DNA of 64,000 nucleotides from Chitinophagales bacterium (GTDB taxonomy: Bacteria > Bacteroidota > Bacteroidia > Chitinophagales > Chitinophagaceae). Shown here piece after piece: positions 9,153 to 56,419 of the stretch. A model generated the notes under the pieces. The model searched no databases. It had not been told where the DNA came from and saw only the letters and a list, made by a program, of their open reading frames with translations. The position numbers and the translations under genes were made by a program. The stretch is from positions 1-64,000 of the forward strand of contig JAATGJ010000156.1 of assembly GCA_015654695.1 (NCBI GenBank), given 5' to 3'. Within the stretch, counting starts at the first letter, position 1, and every line of letters starts with the position of its first letter.

Positions 9153-9209
9153 ACCAGCCCGGAGTCGTGTGCCGTGTTTTCATTTTTACTTTTGAATTAA
9201 TCTCAATTT

Positions 9210-9755
9210 ATGAGTATAGGGAAAGAATTTTTACAAACAACCATCCGCAGGGTAAAATATTATAAAGACCTTGGCGACAAAACATTTGAACAACTGTATG
9301 ATGCGGATTTTCATTACCAGCCAAATGATGAATCGAACAGTATCGCGGTTATCATTCAGCACGTGGCGGGTAATATGCTCAGCCGCTGGACGAACTTTCT
9401 AACGGAAGATGGTGAAAAAGAATGGCGGCAACGGGATGATGAATTTGCTGTTCATACCTATAGCAAGCAACAATTATTGGAAATATGGGAAAAAGGATGG
9501 GCCTGTTACCTTGATACACTTGGTTCATTGCAGGAAGACGATCTTTTAAAAACAGTTTATATACGGCAGGAAGGATTAACCGTTATTGATGCCATCAACA
9601 GGCAACTGGCCCATTATCCCTATCATGTTGGCCAGGTCGTTTATATTGGCAGGGTCATTAAAAATCATTCCTGGAAAAATTTATCTATCCCCAAAGGAGA
9701 GTCACAACAGTATAATAAAAGCGAAGTGGTCAAAGACCCGTCCAGGAAGTTTTGA
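9210..9755 (+). CDS. DUF1572 / DinB-like family protein
   Basis: 181 aa. The HVAGNMLSRWTNFL and AHYPYHVGQ segments match the DinB/YfiT-like four-helix fold family. Confidence 0.75.
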   Translation: MSIGKEFLQTTIRRVKYYKDLGDKTFEQLYDADFHYQPNDESNSIAVIIQHVAGNMLSRWTNFLTEDGEKEWRQRDDEFAVHTYSKQQLLEIWEKGWACYLDTLGSLQEDDLLKTVYIRQEGLTVIDAINRQLAHYPYHVGQVVYIGRVIKNHSWKNLSIPKGESQQYNKSEVVKDPSRKF

Positions 9756-17333: not shown

Positions 17334-17506
17334 GGCAGCAAAGATAATATAGTTTCCATTTCTGAAGCTATCCGGATAGCTGGCAGAAAAGTATTAACAA
17401 ATATCCGGTGATGATACTTCGGTTACCAAGAATTACCGGAAAGTGGTATCGTTTAATGTACAAAAACAAAAAGGGATGTATTACATTTGAAACCAGTGTT
17501 ACCTGC

Positions 17507-19441
17507 ATGAAAAAAACTGACAGCTTTCGTTTACTATTGGTTGTTGCCACCATTTCTTTATTGCTTGCCGATGGAATGGCGCAATTTGTCCCGTTGAATG
17601 GGAAGGATAGTTTGCCTGGAAAATGTATTGATATCAGCAGGATAAAGCTTGTAAAGAATATCACTACTGAAATAAGTACCGCCTATTTCAGCAAAAAGAT
17701 GACTTTGCCTGCAATTTATTTTCAGTCATTACAGTTTTACCCGGGCCTCGTTCATAAGAAAACAATACCCAATGACTTTATTACCAAAGGAGCTGTCATG
17801 CGCTTTGATCTTTGTAATAGCGGCGATTCGGCCTTCAGTGTTTACTTTTTCCCCGGGCTTTATTACGATCATATTAAATTATACCGGGCCTGGAATAATA
17901 AACTGGAAGAATTGCCCCGTGTTCTTCCCGATCATCCTGATAGTATCGGTTACCGCCTTATCTCCTTATCGCCACATGATACCGCCACTATTGTCGCCGA
18001 ACTGGGTTTTGTAAAAACTTACACCATTAACATGCGGCCAAGGTTGATAAGCCCGGAATACTTCGGCTCATTTATAGCAGAGATGACCAGTTCCCCCAAT
18101 GAAAGCCAGCTGATGACCTATGTGTTTTGCGGGTTATTGCTGATGATGATCCTTTTCTCAATAGCTAATTTCCTGCAGGGCGCTAATCCTGAATTTCTTT
18201 ATTATTCCGGGTATGCTTTTTTCCTGGGAAGCATGTTACTGACAAAAGCCATGTTATTTTACCATACCAGCAAAACCAGTTATTTCCTGGAAGGCTACCT
18301 TGATTATATTATGCAATCGCTTGGCATTATGTTTTACATGCTGTTCATGCAGAAATACCTTGATACAAAAAGCGAGCATCCTTTCCTTCATAAATTATAC
18401 AATGCAGGCATCTTCATGTTGCTTTTTTCGGCGGGAGGCTATACCTGGTTTCATTATTTCACGGATAATTTTACGATAGAAAATGCAATAGAGAACGTCA
18501 CAAAAGTGGCGCTGCTTATAATGACCCTTATTTTCCTGGTGTACAGCCTGCGGCACCGGAAAGATAAACTGATGCGATATCTTTTCTGGGGCAATCTTTG
18601 TTTGTTTGTTTTCTCCTTATTTTCCCAGCTCATTATTATGTCTAATACCTTAGCAAGACAGTTGCCAGGTATATTTAAGTCTTCCATCTTTTATTATGAA
18701 CTGGGGCTTTTCCTTGAGCTGGTGTTTTTCCTGATGGCGCTGAATCACAAAAACAGGAAGCAGCTAATAGCACAGGCGAGGGAAAGAGAAAGGTTAAAAG
18801 CCGATAACCAGATGAAGGAATATGAAAAAGAACTAGCTGTGTTTAAAGCACAGGAACAGGAAAGGGAAAGAATTTCCGCCGATATACACGATGAGCTGGG
18901 TTCAGGTATGACAGCCATCCGGCTGATGAGCGAGATAGCCCGGAATAAGATGAAAGAAAATACCCCGGTTGAGATAGATAAAATATCTCACTCCGCCAAT
19001 GAAGTACTGAATAAAATGAACGCTATCATCTGGAGTATGAACAGCGGCAATGATACTATTGACAACCTTGTTTCGTATATCCGTTCGTATGCGCTGGAGT
19101 ATTTTGAAAACACCCCTGTTGTTTGCAAAGTGAACACTCCTGAAAATATTGTATCTAAAGAACTGACCGGCGATAAACGGCGGAATATTTTTTTGTGTAT
19201 AAAGGAAACGCTGAACAATGCGCTGAAACATTCCAGGGCATCCACCATCAAAATTGATTTTCAGATTGACGAAGAACTGGTAATAAAAATTGCTGACAAT
19301 GGTATCGGTATTGACCTGCAGCATATCCGGGAATTCGGCAATGGCCTGAAGAATATATCCCGTAGAATGGAAAGTATTGGCGGTGTATATGACATTAAAA
19401 GCAATCACGGAACCCTTACAACATTAACGCTCCCTTTGTGA
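17507..19441 (+). CDS. 7TMR-DISM (7TM receptor with extracellular DISMED2 domain) sensor histidine kinase, HisKA_3 type
   Basis: Signal peptide, extracellular domain, seven hydrophobic helices and a coiled coil. The H-box ADIHDELGSGMTAI and the HATPase_c N/G boxes are present. The gene was re-started at MKKTDSF. Confidence 0.85.
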   Translation: MKKTDSFRLLLVVATISLLLADGMAQFVPLNGKDSLPGKCIDISRIKLVKNITTEISTAYFSKKMTLPAIYFQSLQFYPGLVHKKTIPNDFITKGAVMRFDLCNSGDSAFSVYFFPGLYYDHIKLYRAWNNKLEELPRVLPDHPDSIGYRLISLSPHDTATIVAELGFVKTYTINMRPRLISPEYFGSFIAEMTSSPNESQLMTYVFCGLLLMMILFSIANFLQGANPEFLYYSGYAFFLGSMLLTKAMLFYHTSKTSYFLEGYLDYIMQSLGIMFYMLFMQKYLDTKSEHPFLHKLYNAGIFMLLFSAGGYTWFHYFTDNFTIENAIENVTKVALLIMTLIFLVYSLRHRKDKLMRYLFWGNLCLFVFSLFSQLIIMSNTLARQLPGIFKSSIFYYELGLFLELVFFLMALNHKNRKQLIAQARERERLKADNQMKEYEKELAVFKAQEQERERISADIHDELGSGMTAIRLMSEIARNKMKENTPVEIDKISHSANEVLNKMNAIIWSMNSGNDTIDNLVSYIRSYALEYFENTPVVCKVNTPENIVSKELTGDKRRNIFLCIKETLNNALKHSRASTIKIDFQIDEELVIKIADNGIGIDLQHIREFGNGLKNISRRMESIGGVYDIKSNHGTLTTLTLPL

Positions 19442-41873: not shown

Positions 41874-43151
41874 ATGAAATTACTATTGCCATTTCTTTTT
41901 GTTTTTTTAACCAGTACCCGCAGCCCTGCACAAAACAGTCCGGTTTCATTAAACAATGGGCCCCGCATATTGGCCGCTGCTGAACGTGTGAATGTTTACC
42001 TGCCGTTAATAAAGGGAAGAAAAGTGGGCATCTTTGCTAATCAAACCTCCATGGTTGGCAACACACACCTGGTTGATACATTAAGAAAACTGGGTGTTGA
42101 TATCAAAGTAATATTCGGACCTGAGCATGGTTTTCGGGGTACAGCAGATGCAGGAGAAAAAGTCGGCAATTACATTGATGAAAAAACGGGTATTCCTGTC
42201 GTATCACTTTACGGAAGCAAACGAAGACCTTCTGCGGAAGATGTAAAAGATGCTGATATTCTCATTTTTGATATACAGGATGTGGGTGTACGTTTTTATA
42301 CTTTCATTTCTTCACTGGAAGAATTTATGGAAGCTGCATTTGAATTGGGTAAACCATTGATGATCCTTGACCGGCCCAATCCAAACGGCTTTTATGTTGA
42401 TGGCCCTGTATTGGATAAAAAATTCCAGTCATTCGTAGGTCGTCAGCCTGTACCCATTGTATATGGAATGACGATCGCGGAATATGCGTTTATGATAGCC
42501 GGCGAAAAATGGCTGAGTGAAAAAGCCAATACCCGTTATGATTACTATAAGAACCATGCGCAAAATTCTGCTGATACTCCTTTTCATTTCCAGGTGATCA
42601 AATGCGGCAACTATACTCACAAAAGCAAATATGTTTTACCCGTAAGGCCTTCACCGAATCTCCCGGATATTCAATCTGTCTATCTCTATCCTTCTACCTG
42701 TTTCTTTGAAGGAACCGTATTAAGTGAAGGCAGGGGAACCAACAAACAGTTCCAGGTATTTGGCCATCCCTCTTTGCCAAAAAATTTATATTCATTCACT
42801 CCTAATCCTAATGAAGGAGCCAAAAGTTCGAAGCTATATGGACAAGTATGTTATGGGTGGAGCTTATCAGGAACACCAGAAGAAGTACTAAAGAAAGTGG
42901 ATAATAAAATACAACTGAAATGGCTGATGGAAGCCTACCAGCTCTTTCCGCGAAAAGACAGTTTCTTTATTTTCCCCAAATCAGGAAAGATGGAAGAATC
43001 ATTCTTTAATAAACTGGCGGGTAATAATGAACTGTGGCAACAGGTAAAAGCAGGCAAAAGCGAAGCAGCGATCCGGGAAAGCTGGGAACCCAAACTGAGT
43101 GAATTCAAAGTGACCAGGAAAAAATATTTGCTGTATGAAGATTTTGAATGA
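41874..43151 (+). CDS. namZ: DUF1343 family exo-beta-N-acetylmuramidase NamZ-like
   Basis: Signal peptide and a DUF1343 domain with conserved LVDTL, FGPEHGFRG, IFDIQDVGVR and DRPNP motifs. The gene was re-started at MKLLLPF. Confidence 0.8.
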   Translation: MKLLLPFLFVFLTSTRSPAQNSPVSLNNGPRILAAAERVNVYLPLIKGRKVGIFANQTSMVGNTHLVDTLRKLGVDIKVIFGPEHGFRGTADAGEKVGNYIDEKTGIPVVSLYGSKRRPSAEDVKDADILIFDIQDVGVRFYTFISSLEEFMEAAFELGKPLMILDRPNPNGFYVDGPVLDKKFQSFVGRQPVPIVYGMTIAEYAFMIAGEKWLSEKANTRYDYYKNHAQNSADTPFHFQVIKCGNYTHKSKYVLPVRPSPNLPDIQSVYLYPSTCFFEGTVLSEGRGTNKQFQVFGHPSLPKNLYSFTPNPNEGAKSSKLYGQVCYGWSLSGTPEEVLKKVDNKIQLKWLMEAYQLFPRKDSFFIFPKSGKMEESFFNKLAGNNELWQQVKAGKSEAAIRESWEPKLSEFKVTRKKYLLYEDFE

Positions 43152-43330
43152 TTATGCCCGCTATTTAAAACACTAAATTCATTATATCAACCGGGAAAGA
43201 TCACTATTCTATCCACAGGCATAAGTAGATTTACTAACACTCTATAAAACAACAGCATATTGTCAGTAATTGCCAGCCCGTCAACCGGTTTATTTCCGTA
43301 ATTTCAAGCACCCAAACTGCTTAAATAAAC

Positions 43331-45910
43331 ATGCACGATCAACCAGCGATCTTTTCCCTGCTGCAACAATATATTCCGGCCCTTAGTTCTTACAACGAAT
43401 TATTCTCTGCTGATAATACTATAAGGCCTGACTGGCAAACTTTTTTCGCTTCACTTCATCAATTAGGATATAAAGAATTACAAAACCGTAATATTGATAT
43501 ACAGCGGCTACTGAAAGAAAATGGTGTAGCCTATAATATTTATAATGACCCCTCCGGGCAAACACGTCCCTGGGAACTTGATCCCATACCTCAATTAATA
43601 ACAGCTAATGAATGGGAAACCATCAATGCAGGTTTGATACAGCGTGCAGAATTGTTTGATCTTTTATTGAAAGATATTTACGGTCCGCAAACACTTATAA
43701 AAAATGGCATCATTCCACAGGAACTGATTTACCTGCATCCCGGCTTTATCCGGTCATGTGTAAATGTCAAATTACCCGGAACACAGCACCTGGTTTTATA
43801 TGCAGCGGATATGGCCCGTGGCAATGATGGTCGTTTATGGATCATCAGTGACCGTACGCAGGCGCCATCAGGTTCGGGTTATGCGCTGGAAAACAGGTTT
43901 GCAATGTCAAGTGTATTACCTGAATTATTTTCCAACCTCAATGTAAAGAGGTTATCACCTTACTTTGATTCACTGCAACAGGCATTGACGGATATAGCGC
44001 CGCATAATACGGATAATCCAAGAGTGGTCATACTCACACCGGGTCCTGATAACGAAACGTATTTTGAACATTCTTATCTCGCCGCTTATCTCGGACTTAC
44101 ATTAGTGCAGGGCAATGACCTGATGGTAAAAGATAATTATGTATGGCTAAAGACTATTGATGGTTTGGAAAAAGTGGATGTGCTGTTACGCAGGCTGGAT
44201 GACAGCTATTGCGATCCGCTGGAATTAAAAAGCGATTCACTGTTAGGCATTCCGGGCCTGGTGCAGGTAGTGAGAAAAGGAAATGTAGCTATTGCCAACC
44301 CGCTTGGAAGCAGTATAGTAGAAAGTGCAGGCCTTGTTCCTTTTTTACCTGCTATTGCCAAACATTTCTTTGGAAAGGAACTGATCATGCCGACCATCGC
44401 CACATGGTGGTGCGGTCAGCCCAAAGAAATGAATTATGTAATCGCTAATTTAAAAACGCTGGTAGTAAGAAAGATATTCAGGAATGTGGCCGGCACCCGT
44501 TCTGCTATTGATGGCGCTTCGCTGTCAGTAATACAGGCAGAAGAGTTGATACGACAAATAAAAGCCAGTCCCTACCTGTATGTCGGGCAGGAAAAAATTA
44601 ATTTCTCCTCCACACCTTCATGGGTGGATGGAAAAATTGAAGCGGGTCATTCGTTGTTCAGGAGTTTCCTGGTCAGCCATAACAACAGTTATATTGCCAT
44701 GCCCGGCGGCCTGACACGAACCAATACACAGAAAAATAGCTTCATTATCTCCAATCAGCTTGGAGGTATCAGTAAAGACACCTGGGTTCTTTCAGCGGAT
44801 GATGAACAGGAGCAAACGGTAAACCTCCAATTGACTACCGATACATTGCAGCATACAATACATAAGCGGTCACTCCCAAGCCATACTGCGGAGAATCTCT
44901 TCTGGGTAGGCCGCTATACGGAACGGGTTATTTATAACGCCCGGCTGCAGCGTACCGTAATGCAAAAGATGTTGCAAAGCAACAAACCATTTACTGCTGA
45001 TAGCGGGGGCACAGAATCTGTATTGCTTCATACATTAACACAGTGTACTTATACTTTTTCCGGCTTCTTTGAAGACAGCGATCCTGCGAAAAGAAAAGAT
45101 ATCTACGCGAAGCCATGGACAGAGTTAACCGATGTTTTATACAATGAAAAAAGAAACGGCAGTCTTAGTCATAATCTTTCTTTGTTGAAAAACGCCGTCT
45201 ATAGCGTCCGTAATTTCTGGGCGCTGGATACCTGGCGTGTACTGCGGCAGATGGAAGAGGAATGGAATAAAGCGAAAAAGGATAATACTACCGATCATCT
45301 GCGGATGATCAGCAGTATTGATGCATTGAATACTTCAATGTTTGCCTTCCTTGGAATGAACAGGGAAAGTGTTCGCAGGGAACAGGGATGGAATATCATG
45401 GATCTTGGCAGGAAACTGGAACAGGTGCTGTACATCATTACTTTATTAAGAAGCGTTTTTCAAAACAAACAGGAAGACCAGGTGGAGCATGAGTTGCTGG
45501 AGTCCGTCATGATCGCCAGCCAGAGCCTGATTACTTACCGTTATACTTACCGCGACCATTTGCAATTACCATTGGCGCTCGAATTGCTGATGCTGGATAC
45601 CAACTACCCGAAGTCACTGGCTTATTTAGTGAAAAAAATAAAACGCTATGTTTCGCTTTTGCCCAAGGAAGGAAAAGAAATACCGTTAAGCGATAAGCAA
45701 CGCAATATCCAGGAGGCTGACTCTTTATTAAAACTGGCGGATGTAGTAGCATTGGCAAAACATGACCCGTACACCGGGGAGTATGTTTCCCTGAATAAGT
45801 TTTTGGATAAATTATACTCGCTGATCGCCGATACTTCGATGGGTATCTCCAAAACGTATTTTAAACACAGCCAGACACAAAAACAATTATTTACAGCTAA
45901 CCTTATCTGA
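43331..45910 (+). CDS. circularly permuted type-2 ATP-grasp (DUF404/DUF407) fused to alpha-E domain (DUF403)
   Basis: 859 aa. The N-terminal roughly 480 aa carry CP ATP-grasp motifs, and the C-terminal roughly 330 aa form an alpha-helical alpha-E domain. This is the same architecture as the mycobacterial Rv2567-type fusion. Confidence 0.85.
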   Translation: MHDQPAIFSLLQQYIPALSSYNELFSADNTIRPDWQTFFASLHQLGYKELQNRNIDIQRLLKENGVAYNIYNDPSGQTRPWELDPIPQLITANEWETINAGLIQRAELFDLLLKDIYGPQTLIKNGIIPQELIYLHPGFIRSCVNVKLPGTQHLVLYAADMARGNDGRLWIISDRTQAPSGSGYALENRFAMSSVLPELFSNLNVKRLSPYFDSLQQALTDIAPHNTDNPRVVILTPGPDNETYFEHSYLAAYLGLTLVQGNDLMVKDNYVWLKTIDGLEKVDVLLRRLDDSYCDPLELKSDSLLGIPGLVQVVRKGNVAIANPLGSSIVESAGLVPFLPAIAKHFFGKELIMPTIATWWCGQPKEMNYVIANLKTLVVRKIFRNVAGTRSAIDGASLSVIQAEELIRQIKASPYLYVGQEKINFSSTPSWVDGKIEAGHSLFRSFLVSHNNSYIAMPGGLTRTNTQKNSFIISNQLGGISKDTWVLSADDEQEQTVNLQLTTDTLQHTIHKRSLPSHTAENLFWVGRYTERVIYNARLQRTVMQKMLQSNKPFTADSGGTESVLLHTLTQCTYTFSGFFEDSDPAKRKDIYAKPWTELTDVLYNEKRNGSLSHNLSLLKNAVYSVRNFWALDTWRVLRQMEEEWNKAKKDNTTDHLRMISSIDALNTSMFAFLGMNRESVRREQGWNIMDLGRKLEQVLYIITLLRSVFQNKQEDQVEHELLESVMIASQSLITYRYTYRDHLQLPLALELLMLDTNYPKSLAYLVKKIKRYVSLLPKEGKEIPLSDKQRNIQEADSLLKLADVVALAKHDPYTGEYVSLNKFLDKLYSLIADTSMGISKTYFKHSQTQKQLFTANLI

Positions 45911-45925
45911 TTTGAACATTGCACC

Positions 45926-46804
45926 ATGCTTTATTCTGTTGAACATACTACCAAATACCAATACCACGAGCAGGTGAGCCTTTGCCATAACATCGCCGTA
46001 CTAGCGCCGCGCAATACCGATAAACAAACCTGTAAAGCATTTAATATTATTATTTCACCGTTGCCGGAAGTACTGGAAGAACATGTGGACTTCTTTGGCA
46101 ACAAATTGTATTATTTTGTTATTGAACAGGAGCATGAAGAATTAACTGTCATTGTCAGATCACAGGTGGAAAAAACAATATCTCCTGGTGCACCGGCATC
46201 CTACCCTGCACAAAGCTGGGAAATGGTAAGAGATATGCTACTCGTTTCTACCGGGGAGTATATGGAGGAAAAGCAATTCACCCATCCTACGGAAATAACG
46301 GCTACCTCTCCTGAAATAAAAAACTATGCTGAAAAATCTTTTACAAAAGACAGAGCATTGTTTGAAGCCGTATATGATCTGGTAAAACGTATTTACACAG
46401 ATTTCAGTTTTACACCCGGTTTTACTACCATCTCTACTCCCCTTTCTGTTGTGATGAAAGAACGGAAAGGCGTTTGCCAGGATTTTGCTCATCTTGCCAT
46501 TTCCTGTATTCATTCTATGGGCCTGCCGGCAAGATATGTAAGCGGTTACCTGGAAACATTAGCGCCTGCAGGAAAAGAAAAGCTTACCGGTGTTGATGCA
46601 TCTCATGCATGGATATCGGTATTCATTCCCGGAATGGGCTGGGTGGACTTTGATCCTACCAATAATCAACTGGCTAATGAACAATATATCACTATCGGCT
46701 GGGGCCGTGATTATTTTGACATCATTCCACTCAAAGGAGTGATCATGAGCAGCAGTTCGCATGAATTGACGGTATCGGTAGATGTGAAAAGGATAGAAGA
46801 ATAA
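45926..46804 (+). CDS. transglutaminase-like cysteine protease family protein (Bact_transglu_N + TGase core)
   Basis: 292 aa. Catalytic Cys region GVCQDFAHL, with His and Asp downstream. It lies 16 nt after the ATP-grasp gene. Confidence 0.85.
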   Translation: MLYSVEHTTKYQYHEQVSLCHNIAVLAPRNTDKQTCKAFNIIISPLPEVLEEHVDFFGNKLYYFVIEQEHEELTVIVRSQVEKTISPGAPASYPAQSWEMVRDMLLVSTGEYMEEKQFTHPTEITATSPEIKNYAEKSFTKDRALFEAVYDLVKRIYTDFSFTPGFTTISTPLSVVMKERKGVCQDFAHLAISCIHSMGLPARYVSGYLETLAPAGKEKLTGVDASHAWISVFIPGMGWVDFDPTNNQLANEQYITIGWGRDYFDIIPLKGVIMSSSSHELTVSVDVKRIEE

Positions 46805-46913
46805 TATCTTGTACAGAATTTGAAACACAAAAGCACGAAGACACAGAGGCACAGAGATTTTTTATTGCTTTGTGTATTCGTGGCTCATATATATTAAACT
46901 AAGAACACTGCCT

Positions 46914-47306
46914 CTATTTTTTATTTCTCACTTTTTCTTTTTCTGACATTTGCTTCATCCTGTATTTTACCATTTTGCTGATCAATGCCAGGGGAAGTGG
47001 CTTACCCAAGGGAAACTTGGCTGTGCTTTTTGCTCCTGCATAAGGTGCAAGTTCCTTTTTGAATCCTTCAACTCCAACCGGCGCCGGATAAAAAGCGATA
47101 TGGCTTTTCCACGCGGCAAAAGAAACCAGGTTTCCATTCAATGTAAAGGTGGGAATTGCATATTTGATCGTTTCTTCCGCTTTGGGCGCCGACTTCCTGA
47201 TGGTAGCTCTTAACAGTTCCAGCATCTTTTGAATGTCTTTGGGGAAGCCGGCAATATATTCATTGATAGTTGCCGCCGGTTTACTTTTCATCGCCTTTGC
47301 CATCAT
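46914..47306 (-). CDS. DUF1801 (YdhG-like) domain protein
   Basis: 130 aa with the conserved ...AIPTF..NG.LV.FAA.K.H..FYP pattern. Confidence 0.75.
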   Translation of the reverse strand: MMAKAMKSKPAATINEYIAGFPKDIQKMLELLRATIRKSAPKAEETIKYAIPTFTLNGNLVSFAAWKSHIAFYPAPVGVEGFKKELAPYAGAKSTAKFPLGKPLPLALISKMVKYRMKQMSEKEKVRNKK

Positions 47307-47408
47307 TTATAGTTATTAATAGTTAAGGAATGATACAAATTTACATTCCCGTTCTAAGATGGATGCTATGTGAAAGCGACATTATAAGAGGTAGAATGCG
47401 GCAATTTC

Positions 47409-48491
47409 CTATTTTTTCTTCCGGATCGTTTCATGGATAAAAGTCAGCTTCTCCTTTACTGCTTCATTGATCACAAAGGGATAGGAATCTTTCATTCCCA
47501 TGGCACGGTTCAGGCTGTTCATCACGAAGGACAAAGGTATCCATCGCTCAAGGATGTCATCAATAGACTTAGCAGTATAAGGATCAATATTCAGCCGGGC
47601 ACTCATATCATTATCGGCATCGGCGGATCTTGGGTTTAGTGTCATACCAAATGAATAAGCGGTTTCCATTGTATCCACAATATGCATATAATGCGCCCAG
47701 GTCTCCGCCCAGTCTTCCCAGGGATGGGAACTGGCGTAAGCACTGATAAAACTCTCTTTCCATTCTTCTGACGCAGCTTTGCTGTAATGTTGTTTCAATG
47801 CTTCGGCATAATCGGTGGTTTCATCACCAAAAAGTTCCCGGAAGGGCTGTAGCCTTTTTGTATTATCTATCAACTGATCCCAGTAGTAATGCCCTATCTC
47901 GTGGCGAAAATGCCCCAATAGTGTTCGATACACTTCATCCATCTGGTTGCGGGCCATTTCACGGATAGCATCATCGGCTTCCGCTATATTGAGTGTGATC
48001 AGTCCATGATCATGGCCGGTCAGTAAACGTTTTTTCCCATCTTTATTTTCATCCGCCAGGAAATCGAAGGCAATTCCCTTGTTCTCATTCTCGGTTTTAC
48101 TGATGACAGGTAATTTGAAACGTAGCAAAGAATAAACGAGCCGGTGTTTGGCTATTTCAATGCGGGTCCATTTTTCCAGGTTATCCGGTTTGCTGAGATC
48201 AGGTATAGTGTGATTAAGCTCACAGGCAATACAAAATTCCGCTTCGCTGTCATGCGGGAGTAGCCAGTTGCATACATTGTATTGTTTATTGCTGCAGTAT
48301 TTATAGCGTGGCGTGGATGAAGTAATTTTTCCTTTGCTATCAAACAGGACATAACTATTGTCTTCCGCCGGTTGCAAGGCTACCAGGTCCATCCGCTGAG
48401 GATCAAAACCCAGGGAAGCATTGCATTGTACACAAAAGGTATTTTCAAAATAGACGGGCTGACCACAGTGGTCACATTTAAAAAGTTTCAT
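47409..48491 (-). CDS. zinc-ribbon-containing putative zinc metallopeptidase (HExxH)
   Basis: 360 aa. N-terminal CxxC..CxxC ribbon (CDHCGQ...CVQC) and an HEIGH zincin motif. Confidence 0.75.
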   Translation of the reverse strand: MKLFKCDHCGQPVYFENTFCVQCNASLGFDPQRMDLVALQPAEDNSYVLFDSKGKITSSTPRYKYCSNKQYNVCNWLLPHDSEAEFCIACELNHTIPDLSKPDNLEKWTRIEIAKHRLVYSLLRFKLPVISKTENENKGIAFDFLADENKDGKKRLLTGHDHGLITLNIAEADDAIREMARNQMDEVYRTLLGHFRHEIGHYYWDQLIDNTKRLQPFRELFGDETTDYAEALKQHYSKAASEEWKESFISAYASSHPWEDWAETWAHYMHIVDTMETAYSFGMTLNPRSADADNDMSARLNIDPYTAKSIDDILERWIPLSFVMNSLNRAMGMKDSYPFVINEAVKEKLTFIHETIRKKK

Positions 48492-48610
48492 TTGAGAAAT
48501 AGCTTGTTTGAAATTGTTTCTTGTTGCAAAGTAGTTAATTAATCAAGAAATGTGCCTGATAGGAAATGGCATGCGAATAATGTGAACTATGCCAAATGTA
48601 CTTCTAATAT

Positions 48611-48749
48611 CACCCTTTCGGGGTTAAGCCCCAGCTGGTTGCTACATATCTATAGTAATACCACCTCTTCGAGGTTTTAATCCTGAAAGGATGATATTAA
48701 TATAGTAAGTAAGTCATCAAAGATGTTGGGTTCCAAATCCCGAAGGGAT
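48611..48749. repeat. cluster of four short hairpins (5-bp stems, 3-5-nt loops)
   Basis: ACCCtttcgGGGT, ACCTCttcGAGGT, ATCCTgaaAGGAT and ATCCCgaaGGGAT, within about 140 bp. They sit between the zinc-peptidase gene start and the stop of the secreted 443-aa gene. Confidence 0.45.
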
Positions 48750-48807
48750 GGCATTGGATTTCTAAATGAATACTATTACAAATACACAAAGACCAGTAAA
48801 AAATAAC

Positions 48808-50139
48808 TTATTTAAAAAGAAAAGATAAATCTGTTAACGTATTATCTCTTTTAAAACAATATATATAAAGTCTATAAAAGGTTAAATCAGATTCTTTGCT
48901 CATGTCTTTTGTCAGGCCCACAATAGATACATCATTTACTAAATACTCAGACCCTGTTCTATTATCCTTAGTATTGTCGTACTTATACAACAACGATTTA
49001 GCCAATGATTGAACCTGTTTAAAATCAGAAACTTCATTTAGATAAAGCTTATAGGAAGTACTGTCGGTAAATTTTAAACTAACACCAAATAAAGTATCTT
49101 TAGAATCCTTATATGTATGAACGAAGAATGAAAGGCTATTAAATTTCATTGATCTTGATTCAGCTGTATCGGTTATTGTACGTGTCACAATTGTATCAGT
49201 ATTTGTACATTGACTTATGTCTATTTTGAAACAGGCTTTATCCAAGTCGGCAATTGGTATTTTACTATTTAATACGTAGTCATGAAAATTTTTAAATAAA
49301 GTTTCAAATGGATAATTAAACGTCCCATTGGCATTTGTTATCAAGAAATTATTTTTATTCCTAAAATAACTTACGAGATTGCTGTAGTTAGATATCAATG
49401 TATCCTGTAAGTCAATATCAGAAGAATACAGTATTAATGAATCCAACGCTTTAATTGCATCTGAATAATTGTATCTACGCTCTTCGAACGTAACCTTTAT
49501 AAGATACTTGTGATAAAAATTCAGCGGGTTTTTTACGTGGTTCAATCTATTTAGAACGCCATCATAGTTCTTTTCTTTTTCATACTTTTCAGTACTTGAA
49601 TATAAGTCTTCGAACTCTTCAGTAGCATCCAAATATTTTAAAGTTATATCATACCAATAGCTACTTTCTTCTGCAATGAATTCATTTACACCTTTATCCC
49701 CTCTAAGTACATCGAATATTCGATTGGCCTCTTTAACCTCATTCATATTCATTCTGAAAAGCCCTGTGAAAAAGAGTTTGTATTCGTAACCAAAATTGTC
49801 TACGATTCTGAAGTAGTTATATGAATCTTTTTTGTTTAGGTAAATAAATAATTTGCCATAGTCTGGTTTATAAGTGGCAGGCATTCTGGCATAGTAAGAG
49901 TTTGAAACTTTTAAATATGGATCTATCCAGCCCGGTTTTCCTGTGTAAGGGTTATAATTCCCTTTTGTTGAGTAGTTGTCAAACATGCTATTATTTGGCG
50001 TCGTTCTAAAATGGGGCTGAATATAAGTCCCATCATTTTTTAAATACCCATTAACGAAGACATCACTTTTCTGAGCAGATAAATTGTTAAGAAAAAAGCA
50101 GGTTATCAGTAAAAAAAAGGTTCTAAGCATTGCTGTCAT
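48808..50139 (-). CDS. secreted hypothetical protein (Asn/Tyr/Lys-rich, no recognisable domain)
   Basis: 443 aa with a Sec signal peptide. The coding sequence is strongly AT-rich relative to its neighbours. Confidence 0.6.
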   Translation of the reverse strand: MTAMLRTFFLLITCFFLNNLSAQKSDVFVNGYLKNDGTYIQPHFRTTPNNSMFDNYSTKGNYNPYTGKPGWIDPYLKVSNSYYARMPATYKPDYGKLFIYLNKKDSYNYFRIVDNFGYEYKLFFTGLFRMNMNEVKEANRIFDVLRGDKGVNEFIAEESSYWYDITLKYLDATEEFEDLYSSTEKYEKEKNYDGVLNRLNHVKNPLNFYHKYLIKVTFEERRYNYSDAIKALDSLILYSSDIDLQDTLISNYSNLVSYFRNKNNFLITNANGTFNYPFETLFKNFHDYVLNSKIPIADLDKACFKIDISQCTNTDTIVTRTITDTAESRSMKFNSLSFFVHTYKDSKDTLFGVSLKFTDSTSYKLYLNEVSDFKQVQSLAKSLLYKYDNTKDNRTGSEYLVNDVSIVGLTKDMSKESDLTFYRLYIYCFKRDNTLTDLSFLFK

Positions 50140-50293
50140 TTGAACGGGATTTTCTTATCCTGAAAATTATCAAGAAGGGCCTGTACACTTTTAATTACCT
50201 GCGCACCCCTAAGTTAATAAAGCCGAATACATTCACAATCCCCATATGAGATTCGTGGGCTATGAATTTGGCAATAATCTGATTTCTTTCCTT

Positions 50294-51226
50294 CTAAACA
50301 AATGATAAGTCATATTTCAAAAGAAGTCTATCATTTTTTTGAATAAATAGCAATTTGTTCATATCAACTATAGGCCTTACCCAAAGCCTATTTAATACTT
50401 TTTGCAATTCTTCTATGTCTTGATTCATTTGAAGTTCTCGAACAATAAAATCCCTATCAAAATTAGGTTGATTGCCTACAGAATTGCCTACTGTTCGCCA
50501 TTTTTTGTATTGCTGAATTTTTTCTTTTTTTGGTACATAACTTTTGCCATCGTGGGGAATGTAGGCAATTTGATAATTGTGAACTATCACATTTCTATAT
50601 TCTCTCACTAATCTTGAAATTCGCTTATATTCTTTCCAATCTGCAAATCCATGCAAATATTCATCAAGTATATTTTGCCTACTTGGCAATTTTATTGGAG
50701 GAGGTTTGCCTTTTGATAAATAATGTTCAAAAGCACTATCATAATATTTGTCATACCAGCCATCTGCAATTTTCAAAAAACCATCTTTAGTCAACTTTTG
50801 TAAAATGACTGTTTGCTGATTAGTGCATTCAAGAATAATAAAATATATTTTAGTCAAAAATTCCTCGACTGAATCACATACGCTCCCTAAATGAGTATAG
50901 AAGTTTTCAAAAAAAGAAATCTGTTTTTCTTCCAGTGCATTGTACGCATATAAGAAATTCAAAAAAATAGAGTAGTGGTAAGAACCAATCTCATGAAAAT
51001 CCGCTGACGTGTTTTCTCTGGGATCAATTTTAAGTTTGTCGTCATCATCAAATATTGAATTATCAAGCCTATTAGTAAAAGGGACGATAAAATTTTTCCA
51101 GAAGAACTCGCAATTTGGAAATGAGGTGGCTAAAATGTGTCCGAAGTTTTTCTCTTTAACATGTCCATGCTTTTTAAAGCTCGTATGAGATATTATTTCT
51201 TTGAGTTTAGATATTTCGATTTGCAT
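50294..51226 (-). CDS. hypothetical protein with HEPN-like Rx4H motif (candidate RNase)
   Basis: 310 aa and AT-rich. The C-terminal half is predicted all-helical and contains RLVREYRNVIVHN, that is R-N-x3-H, the hallmark spacing of HEPN active sites. Confidence 0.55.
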   Translation of the reverse strand: MQIEISKLKEIISHTSFKKHGHVKEKNFGHILATSFPNCEFFWKNFIVPFTNRLDNSIFDDDDKLKIDPRENTSADFHEIGSYHYSIFLNFLYAYNALEEKQISFFENFYTHLGSVCDSVEEFLTKIYFIILECTNQQTVILQKLTKDGFLKIADGWYDKYYDSAFEHYLSKGKPPPIKLPSRQNILDEYLHGFADWKEYKRISRLVREYRNVIVHNYQIAYIPHDGKSYVPKKEKIQQYKKWRTVGNSVGNQPNFDRDFIVRELQMNQDIEELQKVLNRLWVRPIVDMNKLLFIQKNDRLLLKYDLSFV

Positions 51227-51322
51227 ATAGTTTCATGTAATGAGTCGTAATAAAACTACTTTATATCATTAACACATCCAAATTAGACAGTCTAATAGGT
51301 TAGTAATATAAATAGTGGTATT

Positions 51323-51493
51323 GTGTTCCAGCGGAACACATCGTGGGTAAAAAAATCATACGGATATGAACGGCGGCGTTCCGTAGGAACGCATGGTGCT
51401 AATATTGAAAATGGATTGCACGAAACGTTCCGATGGAACGTTGGCTGGTTTCATTTGATACGGTTATACCCACGAGTTGTCCCGATGGGACAA
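51323..51493. repeat. ordered array of four GTTCC-N3-GGAAC hairpins about 50 bp apart, with an enclosing long-range stem; candidate structured ncRNA / leader
   Basis: GTGTTCCagcGGAACAC (51323-39), GCGTTCCgtaGGAACGC (51376-92), AACGTTCCgatGGAACGTT (51424-42) and TTGTCCCgatGGGACAA (51477-93). The flanking stem bases covary. CGTGGGTA (51343-50) pairs with TACCCACG (51468-75) and encloses hairpins 2 and 3. Confidence 0.5.
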
Positions 51494-51725
51494 GAGAAGA
51501 TTCCTATTATTGCTGAATAAAATAATAGCCATCGGATCACAGAACTCACATCCGGCAATTCGTGTTTTTCCAAATCTATCAGACACTTCGCAATGCGGAA
51601 TGGAATTATTGAACGTACAACTAAGCCCTTCGTTTCGCCCTGGGTAAATTTACAACAGGCGATGATCCTTAGATAAACTCAGAACAGTCCTACCGTTGGT
51701 AAAAAAATCCATTTATTCTTTCTAT

Positions 51726-54700
51726 TTAATCAACTCCCTTCTTCAACCGCAGATCCAGCGTACACGGAAATTCATTATTTATTTCCGGCGCCGGCGCATC
51801 ATACACAAAACTGCCACGGTTGTTTTCGATATAATGCTGCGTTACGGAGGATAGCACGGTTATAAAACGCGGTTCTTGTGTATGGCTGGTATTGCCAAAG
51901 CGGTTGATGCGGCGGCTTTCCGCTTCAAAACTGTTGATGGGGAACGTATCGTAACTTCTGCCGCCGGGGTGCGATACATAATACGTGCAACCACCAATGG
52001 AGCGGCCATTCCATGTATCTACAATATCAAAAGTGAGTGGCGTATCAACACCAATGGTGGGGTGCAATGCACTCGGCGGCTGCCAGGCCCGGTAACGGAT
52101 ACCGCAAACATATTCGCCTTTTACACTAGTGGCTGTAAGCGGAACGCGAACACCACCGCAGAGGAGAATATAGCGGTTGTCGTTGATACCGGATAGTTTT
52201 ACCTGCACCCTTTCTAAAGAACTGTCAACAAAACGTGCCGTGCCGGAGCTGCTCATTTCTTCGCCCAGTACATGCCAGGGCTCAATACCCATACGCAGTT
52301 CCATTTTAATATCTTTTACCGTAACCGAACCGTAATGCGGAAAACGAAATTCGAAAAATGGCTTGAACCAGTTGATGTCGAATGCATAACCGGCCATATT
52401 TAAATACTCTACCACATCAGCCATATCCTGCTGCACATAATGCGGCAGCAAATATTTATCGTACAGGCTGGTGCCCCAGCGTACCAGTTTATGCTTGTAT
52501 GGTTTTTTCCAGAATGTGGCTATCAATGCACGGATGAGCAACATTTGCAGCAAACTCATTTGCTTATGCGGTGGCATATCAAACGCCCGGAATTCTAAAA
52601 TGCCCAGCCTTCCTGCAGAAGAATCGGGAGAATATAATTTATCAATACATAATTCGGAGCGATGCGTATTACCCGTAATGTCAGTAAGCAAATGCCGGAA
52701 TATTCTGTCGGTAATCCAAAAAGGAATAAAGCCTTTTTCGGGCACCTGGCTAAAAGCAATTTCCATTTCATAAAGACGGTCTTCAAAACCTTCATCAAAA
52801 CGGGGGGCCTGGCTGGTAGGCCCGATAAAACTACCGGAAAACAAATACGATAAACCGGGATGGTGTTGCCAGAAAGTGATTAAACTCCGCAACAGATCAG
52901 GGCGGCGCAACAGCGGACTATCTGCCGGCTTTGCAGCACCAATGGTAATATGATTACCACCGCCAGTGCCGGTATGGCGTCCATCCAGCATAAACTTTTC
53001 GGTACCCAGTCGTGATAATCTTGCCTGTTCGTATAAAGTATCTGTATTGGCTAAAAGGTCCTTCCAGTTTTTTGCAGGGTGAATATTTACTTCTATCACG
53101 CCGGGGTCTGGTGATACTACCATACGTTCCACCCTGGTATCTCTTGGTGGTTCGTAGCCTTCGATACGCACCTGCATTTTTAATTTAGCTGCCGTGCTTT
53201 CGATACAGGCTACCATATCCAGGTAGTGTTCTATATAATCCATCGGCGGCAGAAAAATATAAATATGGCCATCCCGTACTTCCACACTTAATGCCATGCG
53301 GATGGTTTCAATCTCCCTGGTAATTTCTTCAGGCGGTTCTTTTTCTTTAGCCTTCTTTTTTTCAGCAGTTGCATTTCTCTTCTCGAACTTTTCTTTATTC
53401 TCCCCTGCTAATTTTGTTATCGGTTCTGTGTTTTTAAATACTTTTCCATAGCGCCACAATATCGCTTTATGAAAATCTTCCAGCTCAGGCAGCTCTTCAA
53501 ACAAACTGCGTTCTACTTTATACGGTATCCTGGCTTTGGGCACCACCGGCAACGAGTCCAACGGTAAGCGTAACCCTATGGGAGAATTACCGGGAACTAA
53601 AAAAAGATGCTCCCGGTTAAAGACCCATTTACAGCTCAACCATTTATCATCCCAGTAATTCCAGCGAAGTGGTATTACATAGCCCACAGGTTCATCCAGC
53701 CCCTGGTTAAGCAGCTGTGCTAACGTACGCCGCTCCAATGGGTCTTTTAAATTTGCTTTTAACGGATCAACATTGGCTGGATTTTTTCCTTCGGTCCATA
53801 AAAAATAAAATACATCTTCGTAAGCCGTGCTTATATTATCCAGGCTAACCGCTAAATGCCTGGCCAGTTCGTTAGTAAATGCTTTGGCATCTTTTATAGT
53901 GTATTTCTTTTTGGTTTTTTCGTGGGCGATCAGATCAAGGTTTTTCCAAACGGGAAAACCATCTTTCCGCCAGAACAAACCGTATTGCCATCTTGGTAAT
54001 GGTTCACCGGGATACCATTTACCCTGCCCGTAATGGATCAATCCACCGGGACCAAATTTATCTCTTAAGCGGAAAATAAGATCATGTGATAATTCTCTTT
54101 TTTCTTTTCCATCGGCAGCGGTATTCCATTGCGCCGATTCCATATCATCAATAGAAACAAAAGTAGGCTCTCCACCCATCGTCATGCGTACATCACCTGT
54201 TGCTAAATCTTCGTCCACCTGTTCGCCAATTGCATTTATTTCTATCCATTGCTGTTCGGTAAAGGGTTTGGTTACTCTTGGGTCTTCATAAATTCTTGTC
54301 ACCGAATTTTCAAATTCAAAAGTCACTTCGCACTTATCAGTAGCCCCCACTACTGGCGCGGCACTTGCATAATCGGGTGTACATGCCAGTGGTATATGTC
54401 CTTCGCCGGCAAATAAACCGGAAGTGGCATCTAAACCAATCCAGCCTGCGCCGGGAATATATACTTCTACCCAGGCATGCAAATCGGTAAAATCTTTTTC
54501 AGGGCCCGAGGGTCCATCCAATGATTTTTCATCAGAAGTTAACTGCACCAAATAACCGGATACGAAACGGGATGCCAACCCTAAATGCCGCAATACCTGT
54601 ACAAAAAGCCAGGCTGTATCCCTGCAGGAGCCCAGTGTTTTTTCCAGCGTTTCCTCAGGAGTTTGTACCCCCACTTCCATGCGGATGGAATAATTAATAT

Positions 54701-55163
54701 CCTTATTTATTTTTTGATTGAGGTACACCAAAAAATCATTGATCGTTTTTTTGCTCCTGTCAACACCCTTTAACCATTCCATTAGCCGGGGGCCGCTTTC
54801 TTTTATTTCCAGGTAAGGGATTAATTCTTTGGGTAATTCGCCACGATATTTAAAAGGGAAATTTTCGGCATATTCTTCTACAAAAAAATCAAAAGGATTG
54901 ATGCTGACTAAATTGGCAATTACTTCTACTTCTACTTTTAGCTGCGTAGTTCTTTCTGGAAATACGACACGGGCCTGGTAATTACCAAACGGGTCCTGCT
55001 GCCAGTTGATAAAATGATCTTTGGGTTCCACCTTAAAAGAATACGATTCAATGGGAGTTCGGGAATGCACGGCAGGACGAAGCCGGAAGACATGCGGGGA
55101 TAAAGCCACTAATCGGTCGTAAGTATAAACTGTCTTATGCCGGATCGCTACCCTTATAGCCAT
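51726..55163 (-). CDS. DUF2126 family large transglutaminase-like protein
   Basis: 1145 aa. It has an N-terminal Bact_transglu_N region, a TGase core and a long DUF2126 C-terminal region, the architecture of mycobacterial Rv2566. Confidence 0.85.
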   Translation of the reverse strand: MAIRVAIRHKTVYTYDRLVALSPHVFRLRPAVHSRTPIESYSFKVEPKDHFINWQQDPFGNYQARVVFPERTTQLKVEVEVIANLVSINPFDFFVEEYAENFPFKYRGELPKELIPYLEIKESGPRLMEWLKGVDRSKKTINDFLVYLNQKINKDINYSIRMEVGVQTPEETLEKTLGSCRDTAWLFVQVLRHLGLASRFVSGYLVQLTSDEKSLDGPSGPEKDFTDLHAWVEVYIPGAGWIGLDATSGLFAGEGHIPLACTPDYASAAPVVGATDKCEVTFEFENSVTRIYEDPRVTKPFTEQQWIEINAIGEQVDEDLATGDVRMTMGGEPTFVSIDDMESAQWNTAADGKEKRELSHDLIFRLRDKFGPGGLIHYGQGKWYPGEPLPRWQYGLFWRKDGFPVWKNLDLIAHEKTKKKYTIKDAKAFTNELARHLAVSLDNISTAYEDVFYFLWTEGKNPANVDPLKANLKDPLERRTLAQLLNQGLDEPVGYVIPLRWNYWDDKWLSCKWVFNREHLFLVPGNSPIGLRLPLDSLPVVPKARIPYKVERSLFEELPELEDFHKAILWRYGKVFKNTEPITKLAGENKEKFEKRNATAEKKKAKEKEPPEEITREIETIRMALSVEVRDGHIYIFLPPMDYIEHYLDMVACIESTAAKLKMQVRIEGYEPPRDTRVERMVVSPDPGVIEVNIHPAKNWKDLLANTDTLYEQARLSRLGTEKFMLDGRHTGTGGGNHITIGAAKPADSPLLRRPDLLRSLITFWQHHPGLSYLFSGSFIGPTSQAPRFDEGFEDRLYEMEIAFSQVPEKGFIPFWITDRIFRHLLTDITGNTHRSELCIDKLYSPDSSAGRLGILEFRAFDMPPHKQMSLLQMLLIRALIATFWKKPYKHKLVRWGTSLYDKYLLPHYVQQDMADVVEYLNMAGYAFDINWFKPFFEFRFPHYGSVTVKDIKMELRMGIEPWHVLGEEMSSSGTARFVDSSLERVQVKLSGINDNRYILLCGGVRVPLTATSVKGEYVCGIRYRAWQPPSALHPTIGVDTPLTFDIVDTWNGRSIGGCTYYVSHPGGRSYDTFPINSFEAESRRINRFGNTSHTQEPRFITVLSSVTQHYIENNRGSFVYDAPAPEINNEFPCTLDLRLKKGVD

Positions 55164-55471
55164 ACTGGTTTTTTATTTTGAAATGAGAAGGCGGAGCAAT
55201 CGTTGATTGAATTGAATGAGGTAAGAGGTGAAGATAAAATTTATTTGGCAGTTGGGAACACGGATGACAGGGATTAGACAGATTAAAAGGATTTGCTTCC
55301 GGAAAACAGGAAAATCCTTTTAAATTTCAAGAATAGAACCGGATTAATCTTAAGAAGTTAGGGCTAAAAATCTGTGTAAATCCGCTCAATCCCTGTCATC
55401 CGTGTTCTACCTTAGCAGCCATGATTGAATTCCAGATCAAACAAAGAGATACAGGGCCGAATACTTTTAAT

Positions 55472-56419
55472 ATGGCGCTTGCTTCGCTGCGTATCGTTTT
55501 TATGGGTACGCCGGAATTTGCTGTGGCTTCTTTGGATGCATTGATAAAAGCAGGTTACAATATTGTTGGCGTGATTACAGCGCCTGATAAACCTGCAGGA
55601 AGAGGAATGAAGATGAATGAAAGTGCTGTAAAGAAGTATGCTGTTGAACATAACCTTAAAGTATTGCAACCGGAGAAACTGAAGAACCCGGAGTTTTTAG
55701 AAGAATTGAAATCTTTACATGCCGATCTACAGATCGTGGTTGCTTTCCGGATGCTTCCTGAAATAGTGTGGAATATGCCGCGAATGGGTTCTGTCAATCT
55801 TCATGGGTCATTGTTGCCGCAATACCGTGGCGCTGCTCCTATTAACTGGGCAGTGATCAATGGTGAAAAGCAAACGGGTGTCACCACCTTCAAACTGAAA
55901 CAGGAGATTGATACCGGTGATATTTTACTACAGGAAAGTTTTCCTATCGGTGAAAATGAAACAGCCGGTGAAGTGCATGATAAAATGAAAGAGATCGGGG
56001 CGCAGGTATTGGTAAAGACAGTGAAAGGTTTGGCAGATGGAAGTTTGAAAGAAATGCCGCAATTGGTCATTAGCAATAAGCAACCGGCACCACTCAAACA
56101 TGCACCAAAAATATTCACTGAGACCTGTAAGATAGATTTTACAAAAACAGTTGACGAGGTACATAATCTCATCCGTGGCCTCTCTCCTTTTCCAGGCGCT
56201 TTTACTTATTTAAATGATAAGATGCTGAAGATATACCGCAGTGAGAGGGAGGCTTCCCCAAACCCTTCCCCGGGAGGGAGTTTAGGTCGTTTTGAAACGG
56301 ACAGTAAAACATTTTTGAAGTTTGTCTGTTCGAACGGGTATATCCATGTAAAAGAATTACAACTGGAAGGAAAAAAAAAGATGAGTACTGAAGAGTTTCT
56401 TCCTGGTTACAGGTTCTAA
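55472..56419 (+). CDS. fmt: methionyl-tRNA formyltransferase
   Basis: The LRIVFMGTPEFAV N-terminus, a formyltransferase core with the HGSLLP motif, and a C-terminal domain are present. The gene was re-started at MALASLRIVF. Confidence 0.9.
   Translation: MALASLRIVFMGTPEFAVASLDALIKAGYNIVGVITAPDKPAGRGMKMNESAVKKYAVEHNLKVLQPEKLKNPEFLEELKSLHADLQIVVAFRMLPEIVWNMPRMGSVNLHGSLLPQYRGAAPINWAVINGEKQTGVTTFKLKQEIDTGDILLQESFPIGENETAGEVHDKMKEIGAQVLVKTVKGLADGSLKEMPQLVISNKQPAPLKHAPKIFTETCKIDFTKTVDEVHNLIRGLSPFPGAFTYLNDKMLKIYRSEREASPNPSPGGSLGRFETDSKTFLKFVCSNGYIHVKELQLEGKKKMSTEEFLPGYRF

Follow-up and report, generated by a model that had tools for sequence, protein, structure and literature searches.

A Chitinophagaceae copy of a widespread three-gene module of DUF2126, ATP-grasp/alpha-E and transglutaminase-like proteins, with a lineage-specific split layout

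The interval between positions 43331 and 55163 of a Chitinophagales bacterium contig (JAATGJ010000156.1, assembly GCA_015654695.1; the analysed stretch of 64,000 nucleotides (nt) is referred to as the window) raises the question of which of its genes form one system, and what such a system might make. A preliminary description of the interval had joined five genes into a split peptide-ligase system: a fusion of a circularly permuted ATP-grasp domain with an alpha-E domain, a transglutaminase-like (TGase) protein, a DUF1801 protein, a zinc-ribbon peptidase with an HExxH motif (zincin), and a very large DUF2126 protein. On sequence evidence, the interval is one copy of a widespread three-gene module with DUF2126, the ATP-grasp/alpha-E fusion and the TGase. 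It is an ordinary member of a system that was already described from sequence in 2008-2009 and that has Pfam families of its own and annotations in public records, and its rearrangement is lineage-specific. An ATP-grasp/alpha-E/TGase-like amidoligase system was reportedly predicted by Iyer and colleagues in 2009.

Co-occurrence was evaluated by tblastn of the window proteins against 80 system loci, one genome per species, taken from more than 596 confirmed matches to the fusion protein, together with clustering of the open reading frames (ORFs) in these loci. The loci belong to Bacteroidota (Chitinophagaceae, Cytophagales, Flavobacteriaceae, Sphingobacteriales and Saprospiraceae), Methylococcales, other gamma-proteobacteria, Poribacteria and Verrucomicrobia. 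The best matches to the fusion protein are all from Chitinophagaceae, the closest named relative being Terrimonas pollutisoli (90%). In 74 of the 80 loci, the TGase gene lies directly 3' of the fusion gene (median gap 1 nt in ORF calls starting at ATG only), the exceptions being mostly contig ends. DUF2126 was found in 59-61 of the loci, and in 55 it is on the same strand and immediately upstream of the fusion gene (median gap 71 nt); the canonical order is therefore one operon, DUF2126, fusion, TGase, and the operon gaps in relatives are mostly below 100 nt. The fused query was matched over most of its length in all 80 loci, as far as contigs allow, and both domains are present in 120 of the 120 fusion-protein relatives listed, nearly all of which are ~855-860 amino acids (aa) long. 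For this reason the fusion, which had been presented as a notable trait of this locus, is the standard state of the subtype.

DUF2126 is missing from eight loci with full flanks. Seven of these (L006, L008, L010, L012, L013, L018 and L024) form a more distant Chitinophagaceae-type fusion lineage, with 50-57% identity, and in them DUF2126 was not found within 10 kilobases (kb) of the fusion gene. The DUF1801 gene and two further genes, carried by an islet of low guanine-plus-cytosine (GC) content between the zincin and DUF2126 genes, were detected in none of the 160 related loci scanned, the 80 system loci among them. Judged by the refuting condition named in the preliminary description, a lack of co-occurrence of the five genes across genomes, only three of them occur together consistently, and the conserved unit consists of DUF2126, the fusion and the TGase. 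What is added here is a sharper list of components: a core of three genes, the zincin as an option that recurs with fused and unfused forms alike, and no place for DUF1801.

The zincin is present in eight of the 80 system loci (L002, L003, L011, L012, L018, L024, Mucilaginibacter L057 and Winogradskyella L069), always adjoining the TGase gene. An independent metagenome scan for zincin relatives gave 80 loci (46-70% identity), 44 of them with at least 3 kb of flank. Among these 44, the TGase was the commonest neighbour family, being found in nine loci at -254 to +327 nt (12 when partial contigs are counted), followed by the fusion gene in seven and DUF2126 in six; no other family was seen in more than four. 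A neighbour cluster of six loci was discarded as an artefact of antisense ORFs overlapping the zincin gene. The zincin also adjoins unfused ATP-grasp/alpha-E/TGase operons, namely in Hymenobacter cellulosilyticus (L085) and in L152. Because it is a recurrent TGase neighbour, and also accompanies unfused operons, the zincin is a genuine but facultative partner, and most members of its family sit elsewhere than beside the module. Three of the seven DUF2126-less loci of the distant lineage retain it after the TGase gene, so its link is independent of DUF2126. The association of a zincin and a DUF1801 protein with the module, pointed out earlier, is thus upheld in its first part only, since DUF1801 was seen only in a 97% relative (L168). 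As a side observation, the unfused ATP-grasp of the Hymenobacter locus (8070-9499) was not called as a gene and gave a match in two pieces meeting at ~8372-8384, which may reflect a frameshift, a pseudogene or an assembly error.

In the window, the fusion gene is followed by the TGase gene after 15 nt (45911-45925; 16 nt had been given, which is essentially right), and the DUF2126 gene is on the opposite strand, convergent with the other two core genes and ~4.9 kb apart from them. Such a downstream and opposite-strand DUF2126 was found in only four of the 80 loci (L001, L003, L004 and L011), all of them Chitinophagaceae. In L169/L170, which hold the closest DUF2126 relative (94%), DUF2126 converges on the TGase gene across a 38-nt gap with no zincin, DUF1801 or islet, and L001 and L004 resemble them in lacking both zincin and DUF1801. 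Only the zincin lies between TGase and DUF2126 in L003 and in the metagenome contig L087, where it follows the same-strand DUF2126 gene after 74 nt. L168, in which the fusion protein is 97% identical, has the order NamZ, fusion, TGase, DUF1801(-), zincin(-), matching that of the window. In T. pollutisoli (L081), an unrelated 205-aa gene occupies the DUF1801 slot, and the interval between zincin and DUF2126 (15600-19400) contains 4 kb of cargo composed of an RNase-H-like fragment, a helix-turn-helix/SocA_Panacea gene (SocA_Panacea being a toxin-antitoxin-associated domain) and two unknown genes. The same junction holds 7 kb of unrelated genes in Panacibacter L086, and in L082 DUF2126 was not found within 10 kb.

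DNA homology between the window and its relatives ends at ~48570-48590 and restarts at ~51703-51733, and the GC content is 0.31-0.33 between ~48500 and 51500 versus ~0.42 on either side. The inserted islet recognized in the preliminary description is therefore real; this ~3.1-kb segment is strain-specific, foreign and outside the system. The DUF1801 gene, inserted at the variable junction at species level, is outside the system as well. The Chitinophagaceae junction of TGase and DUF2126 collects variable and foreign DNA, and it behaves as a hotspot for genes of mobile or defence type. The split layout has three causes, a clade-specific inversion of DUF2126, a junction gathering variable DNA and the strain-specific ~3.1-kb insertion; it is a Chitinophagaceae-specific rearrangement with insertions and not a property of the system. 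The features of the interval are collected in Table 1, in which the coordinates and sizes of the five ORFs agree with those first reported; the neighbours of the module in the window are NamZ, Fmt and a LysM protein (Pfam).

Table 1. Positions in the window of the module genes and of the other features lying among them
Feature	Positions	Strand	Basis
Core gene 1: fused circularly permuted ATP-grasp + alpha-E, 859 aa	43331-45910	+	ORF list, Pfam
Core gene 2: transglutaminase-like (papain-fold) Cys-His-Asp protein, 292 aa	45926-46804	+	ORF list, Pfam
DUF1801 gene, 130 aa, non-system	46914-47306	-	ORF list, Pfam
Accessory zinc-ribbon + HExxH zincin (Peptidase_Mx), 360 aa	47409-48491	-	ORF list, Pfam
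Low-GC islet, non-system	48590-51700		GC profile, homology breakpoints
Islet gene: putatively secreted protein, 443 aa	48808-50139	-	ORF list
Islet gene: RNxxxH-motif protein, 310 aa	50294-51226	-	ORF list
Core gene 3: DUF2126 giant, 1145 aa	51726-55163	-	ORF list, Pfam

The domain assignments made earlier all passed a Pfam profile search with strong scores. The fusion protein contains CP_ATPgrasp_2 (5e-143, residues 87-464) and Alpha-E (PF04168, 6.8e-54, residues 515-844); the TGase, Bact_transglu_N (4.6e-25) and Transglut_core (6e-18); the DUF1801 protein, DUF1801 (1.1e-14); and the zincin, Zn_ribbon_DZR_6 (PF10005, 9.7e-32) and Peptidase_Mx (PF15887, 3.7e-108), with HEIGH at residue 197. 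The DUF2126 protein combines Bact_transglu_N and Transglut_core with DUF2126 itself (PF09899, E=0, 1325 bits). The zincin fold had been predicted for DUF2248, the family now named Zn_ribbon_DZR_6/Peptidase_Mx (PMC3650047). For the ATP-grasp half, the closest solved structure is PDB 3n6x (1.1e-87), annotated as a 'putative glutathionylspermidine synthase'.

To judge from the alignments, all four enzymes keep intact catalytic residues; they combine two predicted amide ligases with two or three predicted amide hydrolases. In the alpha-E domain, E521, R528 and R532 are invariant across 51 sequences, and its Glu/Arg motif AENLFWVGRYTER parallels AERLYWLARYLER from an unfused alpha-E. The TGase residues C184/H227/D243 are kept in at least 97% of 71 orthologues. 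Across 22 orthologues of the DUF2126 protein from several phyla, the triad C180/H229/D245 of the TGase-like N-terminal part is invariant, as are E628, R630, E668, E691, N693, H738, E857 and R859 in the C-terminal part. H197, E198, H201, E259 and E263 of the zincin, as well as its ribbon cysteines C6, C9, C20 and C23, are also invariant. None of the fusion, the TGase, the DUF2126 protein and the zincin has a signal-peptide-like N-terminus (read by eye), and the module proteins are cytoplasmic. The fusion protein is predicted to act as an ATP-dependent carboxylate-amine ligase whose accessory domain is all-helical, and the stand-alone TGase-like protein is predicted to be a thiol amidase, peptidase or transamidase. 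The C-terminal domain of DUF2126 has been placed in the carboxylate-amine ligase (GS/GCS2/PafA) superfamily in the work that also described the Rv2566 architecture (PMC2588565), and it is on that work that its predicted ligase assignment rests. The genes belong to the amidoligase system that was predicted computationally in the literature, and an Rv2566-type DUF2126 protein is among them (PMC2588565, PMC3495828, PMC6376114).

With regard to what the module makes, we lean, by analogy and with some confidence, toward a module that both makes and hydrolyses a small amide compound of a peptide-like or gamma-glutamyl/polyamine type. Both ligases would spend ATP to turn a carboxylate into an acyl-phosphate, to which an amine would then be joined, following the two-ligase logic of glutathione synthesis (a GshA-type ligase plus the ATP-grasp GshB), and the product would be such a small amide. 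The two papain-fold TGase-like domains would be the matching thiol amidases or transpeptidases, comparable to the CHAP amidase of glutathionylspermidine synthetase/amidase (Gss); the alpha-E would form a helical bundle that assists or regulates the ATP-grasp ligase; and the zincin, where present, would trim or recycle the peptide. A small-molecule product is favoured because of the analogy with GshA plus GshB and with Gss, and because no tag gene accompanies the module: nothing plausible as a Pup-like small ORF was found in any intergenic space of the locus. For the Rv2566-type proteins, the absence of Pup-like ORFs had been noted and the synthesis of peptide metabolites inferred over protein conjugation (PMC2588565), and the ATP-grasp protein of the Yersinia operon encoding Anbu, a proteasome homologue, releases phosphate from ATP (PMC6376114). 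We tentatively add a more specific version, which we rate as rather unlikely, in which the DUF2126 ligase would act first and the ATP-grasp/alpha-E ligase second, as GshA and GshB do, to produce an undescribed gamma-glutamyl-type small peptide or conjugate. This could be a low-molecular-weight thiol or polyamine conjugate common to Bacteroidota, methanotrophs, Poribacteria and mycobacteria, with the TGase-like domains as dedicated amidases and the zincin as an optional recycling step.

Several observations weigh against a small-molecule product or against the two-ligase scheme behind it. Across phyla, the identity to the window protein is 55-64% for DUF2126 and 40-45% for the fusion (40-51% for the TGase), and the stronger conservation of DUF2126 may hint at a macromolecular partner that is itself conserved. 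The module is often found, in other phyla, beside the operon of the proteasome-like Anbu, which fits a protein-directed role at least equally well. ATP-grasp/alpha-E/transglutaminase-like operons have also been interpreted as a peptide-ligase system in which the transglutaminase-like domains reverse ligated tags (Zhang and Aravind 2012, PMC3495828). The searches made here for the ligase fold of DUF2126 did not confirm it either. An AlphaFold2 model of the protein, built with 35 homologues, reached a mean predicted local distance difference test (pLDDT) score of 49, a poor result because only homologues with at least 73% identity were admissible. A DUF2126 profile made from 22 diverse orthologues matched the PDB only in the TGase domain (3isr, 6g49), with no ligase among the matches, and its hhalign comparison with the GCS2 protein YbdK of E. 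coli was non-significant (E 0.16-0.27, probability <1%); the only alignment given by this non-significant comparison places GGGNHITIG over GQHVHVG and GILEFRAFD over GTVEVRVMD. Finally, as the preliminary description had stated, a substrate or product of the system is unreported in the literature searched, in which no paper naming DUF2126 was found and papers on Rv2566 or Rv2568c give no function.

Protein tagging is the main alternative, and one that we regard as possible, if on the doubtful side. The ATP-grasp ligase, perhaps with the DUF2126 ligase, would attach amino acids or short peptides to target proteins as tags, at carboxylates or lysines, comparable to the glutamate chains of RimK or tubulin TTL, and the TGase-like enzymes and the zincin would remove or process them. 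The same role has been proposed for the Anbu operon (PMC6376114), and it would be consistent with the recurrent recruitment of a peptidase, with the very high conservation of DUF2126 and its published assignment to the ligase superfamily that includes the Pup ligase PafA (PMC2588565), and with the unfused ATP-grasp/alpha-E that, together with Anbu, adjoins the module in other phyla. However, there is no small tag gene in or near the operon, whose gaps are of a few to tens of nt, and the original authors, noting the same lack, preferred metabolite synthesis for the Rv2566-type proteins (PMC2588565). Moreover, pull-downs with the Anbu operon gave no specific complexes and co-expression gave no modified Anbu (PMC6376114, PMC5666114), and the window has no Anbu or proteasome gene. 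A role in nitrogen economy seems improbable to us. In that case, the module would build or degrade an amide polymer or a pool of peptides rich in nitrogen, similar to cyanophycin or poly-gamma-glutamate, from which the TGase-like enzymes would free ammonia or amino acids under nitrogen limitation. Two genes of the Anbu-type cluster of Pseudomonas putida, PP_2685 for a proteasome beta subunit and PP_2688 for a circularly permuted ATP-grasp, are up 16- to 22-fold in nitrate versus ammonium (PMC8050072), and Anbu is reported to be highly expressed in nitrogen starvation (PMC6376114), but these data are for the unfused Anbu-type paralogue instead of the module with DUF2126, scans near the genes gave neither a sigma-54-type promoter nor any other regulatory signal above chance, and the neighbours NamZ, Fmt and the LysM protein are unconnected with nitrogen metabolism.

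The grouping of all five components into an obligate system, with zincin and DUF1801 as integral parts and the ATP-grasp/alpha-E fusion as its distinguishing trait, is very improbable. The identical gene order in L168 and the recurrence of the zincin beside the module in several lineages speak for it, but DUF1801 is missing from the 160 related loci, the zincin is present in just one tenth of the system loci, L001, L004 and L169/L170 lack both, and the fusion is universal in the subtype; for DUF1801, the co-occurrence table already refutes it. The opposite idea, that all of these genes lie together by chance, was rejected, since chance co-location holds only for the DUF1801 gene and the islet. 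The module is among the most widespread conserved bacterial enzyme sets without a known product, and identifying its substrate would matter, as it is reported in Mycobacterium tuberculosis and has a paralogue tied to the unexplained proteasome homologue Anbu. The window brings the product question no closer than hundreds of other genomes.

Apart from the module, the islet was inspected for its own content. A 2934-nt Logan contig from run SRR10968228 matches a segment spanning both of its genes (48415-51348) with 100% identity, and neither gene matched Pfam, NCBIfam, PADLOC or the plasmid collection. The 443-aa protein has an apparent signal peptide and a match to phrog_29674 (unknown function, E=1.8e-12) at residues 8-71, the rest being without a match. 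The 310-aa protein belongs to a family that has 394 representatives when clustered at 50%, and E<=1e-30 holds for 100 of these. In 37 members, the motif R211-N212-x3-H216, which corresponds to the HEPN-type Rx4-6H, has N212 and H216 invariant and R211 conserved in at least 90%, and G21, E25, W43 and P49 do not vary either. None of the 37 members has a Pfam match, and the members tested matched nothing in PADLOC, NCBIfam or PHROG and no HEPN profile; this may be an undescribed family of HEPN-like nucleases.

Some nucleic acid elements were observed around the islet and next to DUF2126. Between the islet and the DUF2126 stop (51300-51500), there are four short hairpins ~50 nt apart (three GTTCC-NNN-GGAAC and one GTCCC-GAT-GGGAC), nested in an outer stem CGTGGGTA/TACCCACG, with an RNA fold z of -7.1; this array has no Rfam match and is absent from every other locus fetched. 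At the opposite end of the islet (48560-48790), which is upstream of the zincin gene, short stem-loops with UUCG/GAAA-type loops are present (fold z = -3.8), and a Bacteroidota-type -7 box, TACATTTG, occurs at 48593-48600(-), ~100 nt upstream of the zincin start, in a scan that was at chance level. The divergent intergenic region between DUF2126 and fmt contains a ~150-nt element (55252-55411; fold z = -5.1) with perfect 19-nt terminal inverted arms, AACACGGATGACAGGGATT, near-perfect over ~30 nt. It may represent a miniature inverted-repeat element or else a long hairpin, and it is single copy in the window and absent from 170 loci. Scans for sigma-70 promoters, terminators, the Bacteroidota -7 box and sigma-54 promoters near the genes were all at chance level, and an Rfam scan of 43000-56000 returned only noise.

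Among known systems, glutathione metabolism and Gss offer enzymatic parallels. Glutathione is made by GshA and the ATP-grasp GshB, a pairing of a GS-superfamily ligase with an ATP-grasp ligase such as is predicted for the module, and Gss, a bifunctional synthetase/amidase, likewise pairs an ATP-grasp synthetase with a papain-fold thiol amidase. Unlike these, the module of the window has a thiol enzyme that is TGase-like and not CHAP, it adds the alpha-E and the very large DUF2126 scaffold, and nothing indicates a glutathione-related product. In pupylation, PafA is a member of the ligase superfamily to which the C-terminal domain of DUF2126 has been assigned (PMC2588565), but the window has no Pup-like small ORF, proteasome or Dop/PafA sequence match, and the original authors argued against a role of the Rv2566-type proteins as protein conjugators (PMC2588565).

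The Anbu operon of Pseudomonas, Yersinia, Hyphomicrobium and other bacteria has homologous ATP-grasp, alpha-E and TGase-like genes in the same order (PMC6376114, PMC5666114); in the papers on the Anbu structure, Anbu showed no peptidase activity, and none of the hypotheses is said to have been confirmed (PMC6376114, PMC5666114). In contrast to that operon, the module of the window is without Anbu (no match in the 64 kb by tblastn with the Anbu of L016), its ATP-grasp and alpha-E are fused in one 859-aa ORF, and DUF2126 is present as a predicted second ligase. The ATP-grasp of the window is 33% identical to an unfused copy. An unfused pair of ATP-grasp (~483 aa) and alpha-E (~320 aa) lies within a few kb of the fused module in 18-20 loci from other phyla, and in 12 of these it is accompanied by a ~251-aa Anbu-like N-terminal nucleophile (Ntn) hydrolase, the mature N-terminus of which would start with Thr; no second ATP-grasp/alpha-E copy was found in the window. 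A second, unfused module is nearby in L014, L016-L023, L030, L033, L034, L037, L038, L040, L045, L046, L049, L050, L059, L061, L062, L064 and L069. Because they are separate neighbours in other phyla, the fused and Anbu modules are paralogous systems and not the same one.

The Rv2566-type module of M. tuberculosis, predicted by Iyer, Burroughs and Aravind in 2008 (PMC2588565), has the same partner families (DUF2126, ATP-grasp/alpha-E and TGase-like). Rv2567 would be a fusion, and Rv2568c a zincin. The window differs from it in that DUF2126 is inverted, with ~4.9 kb of accessory and foreign DNA in between. The copy in the window corresponds, in Chitinophagaceae, to the Rv2566-type system, and it is paralogous to the Anbu operon.

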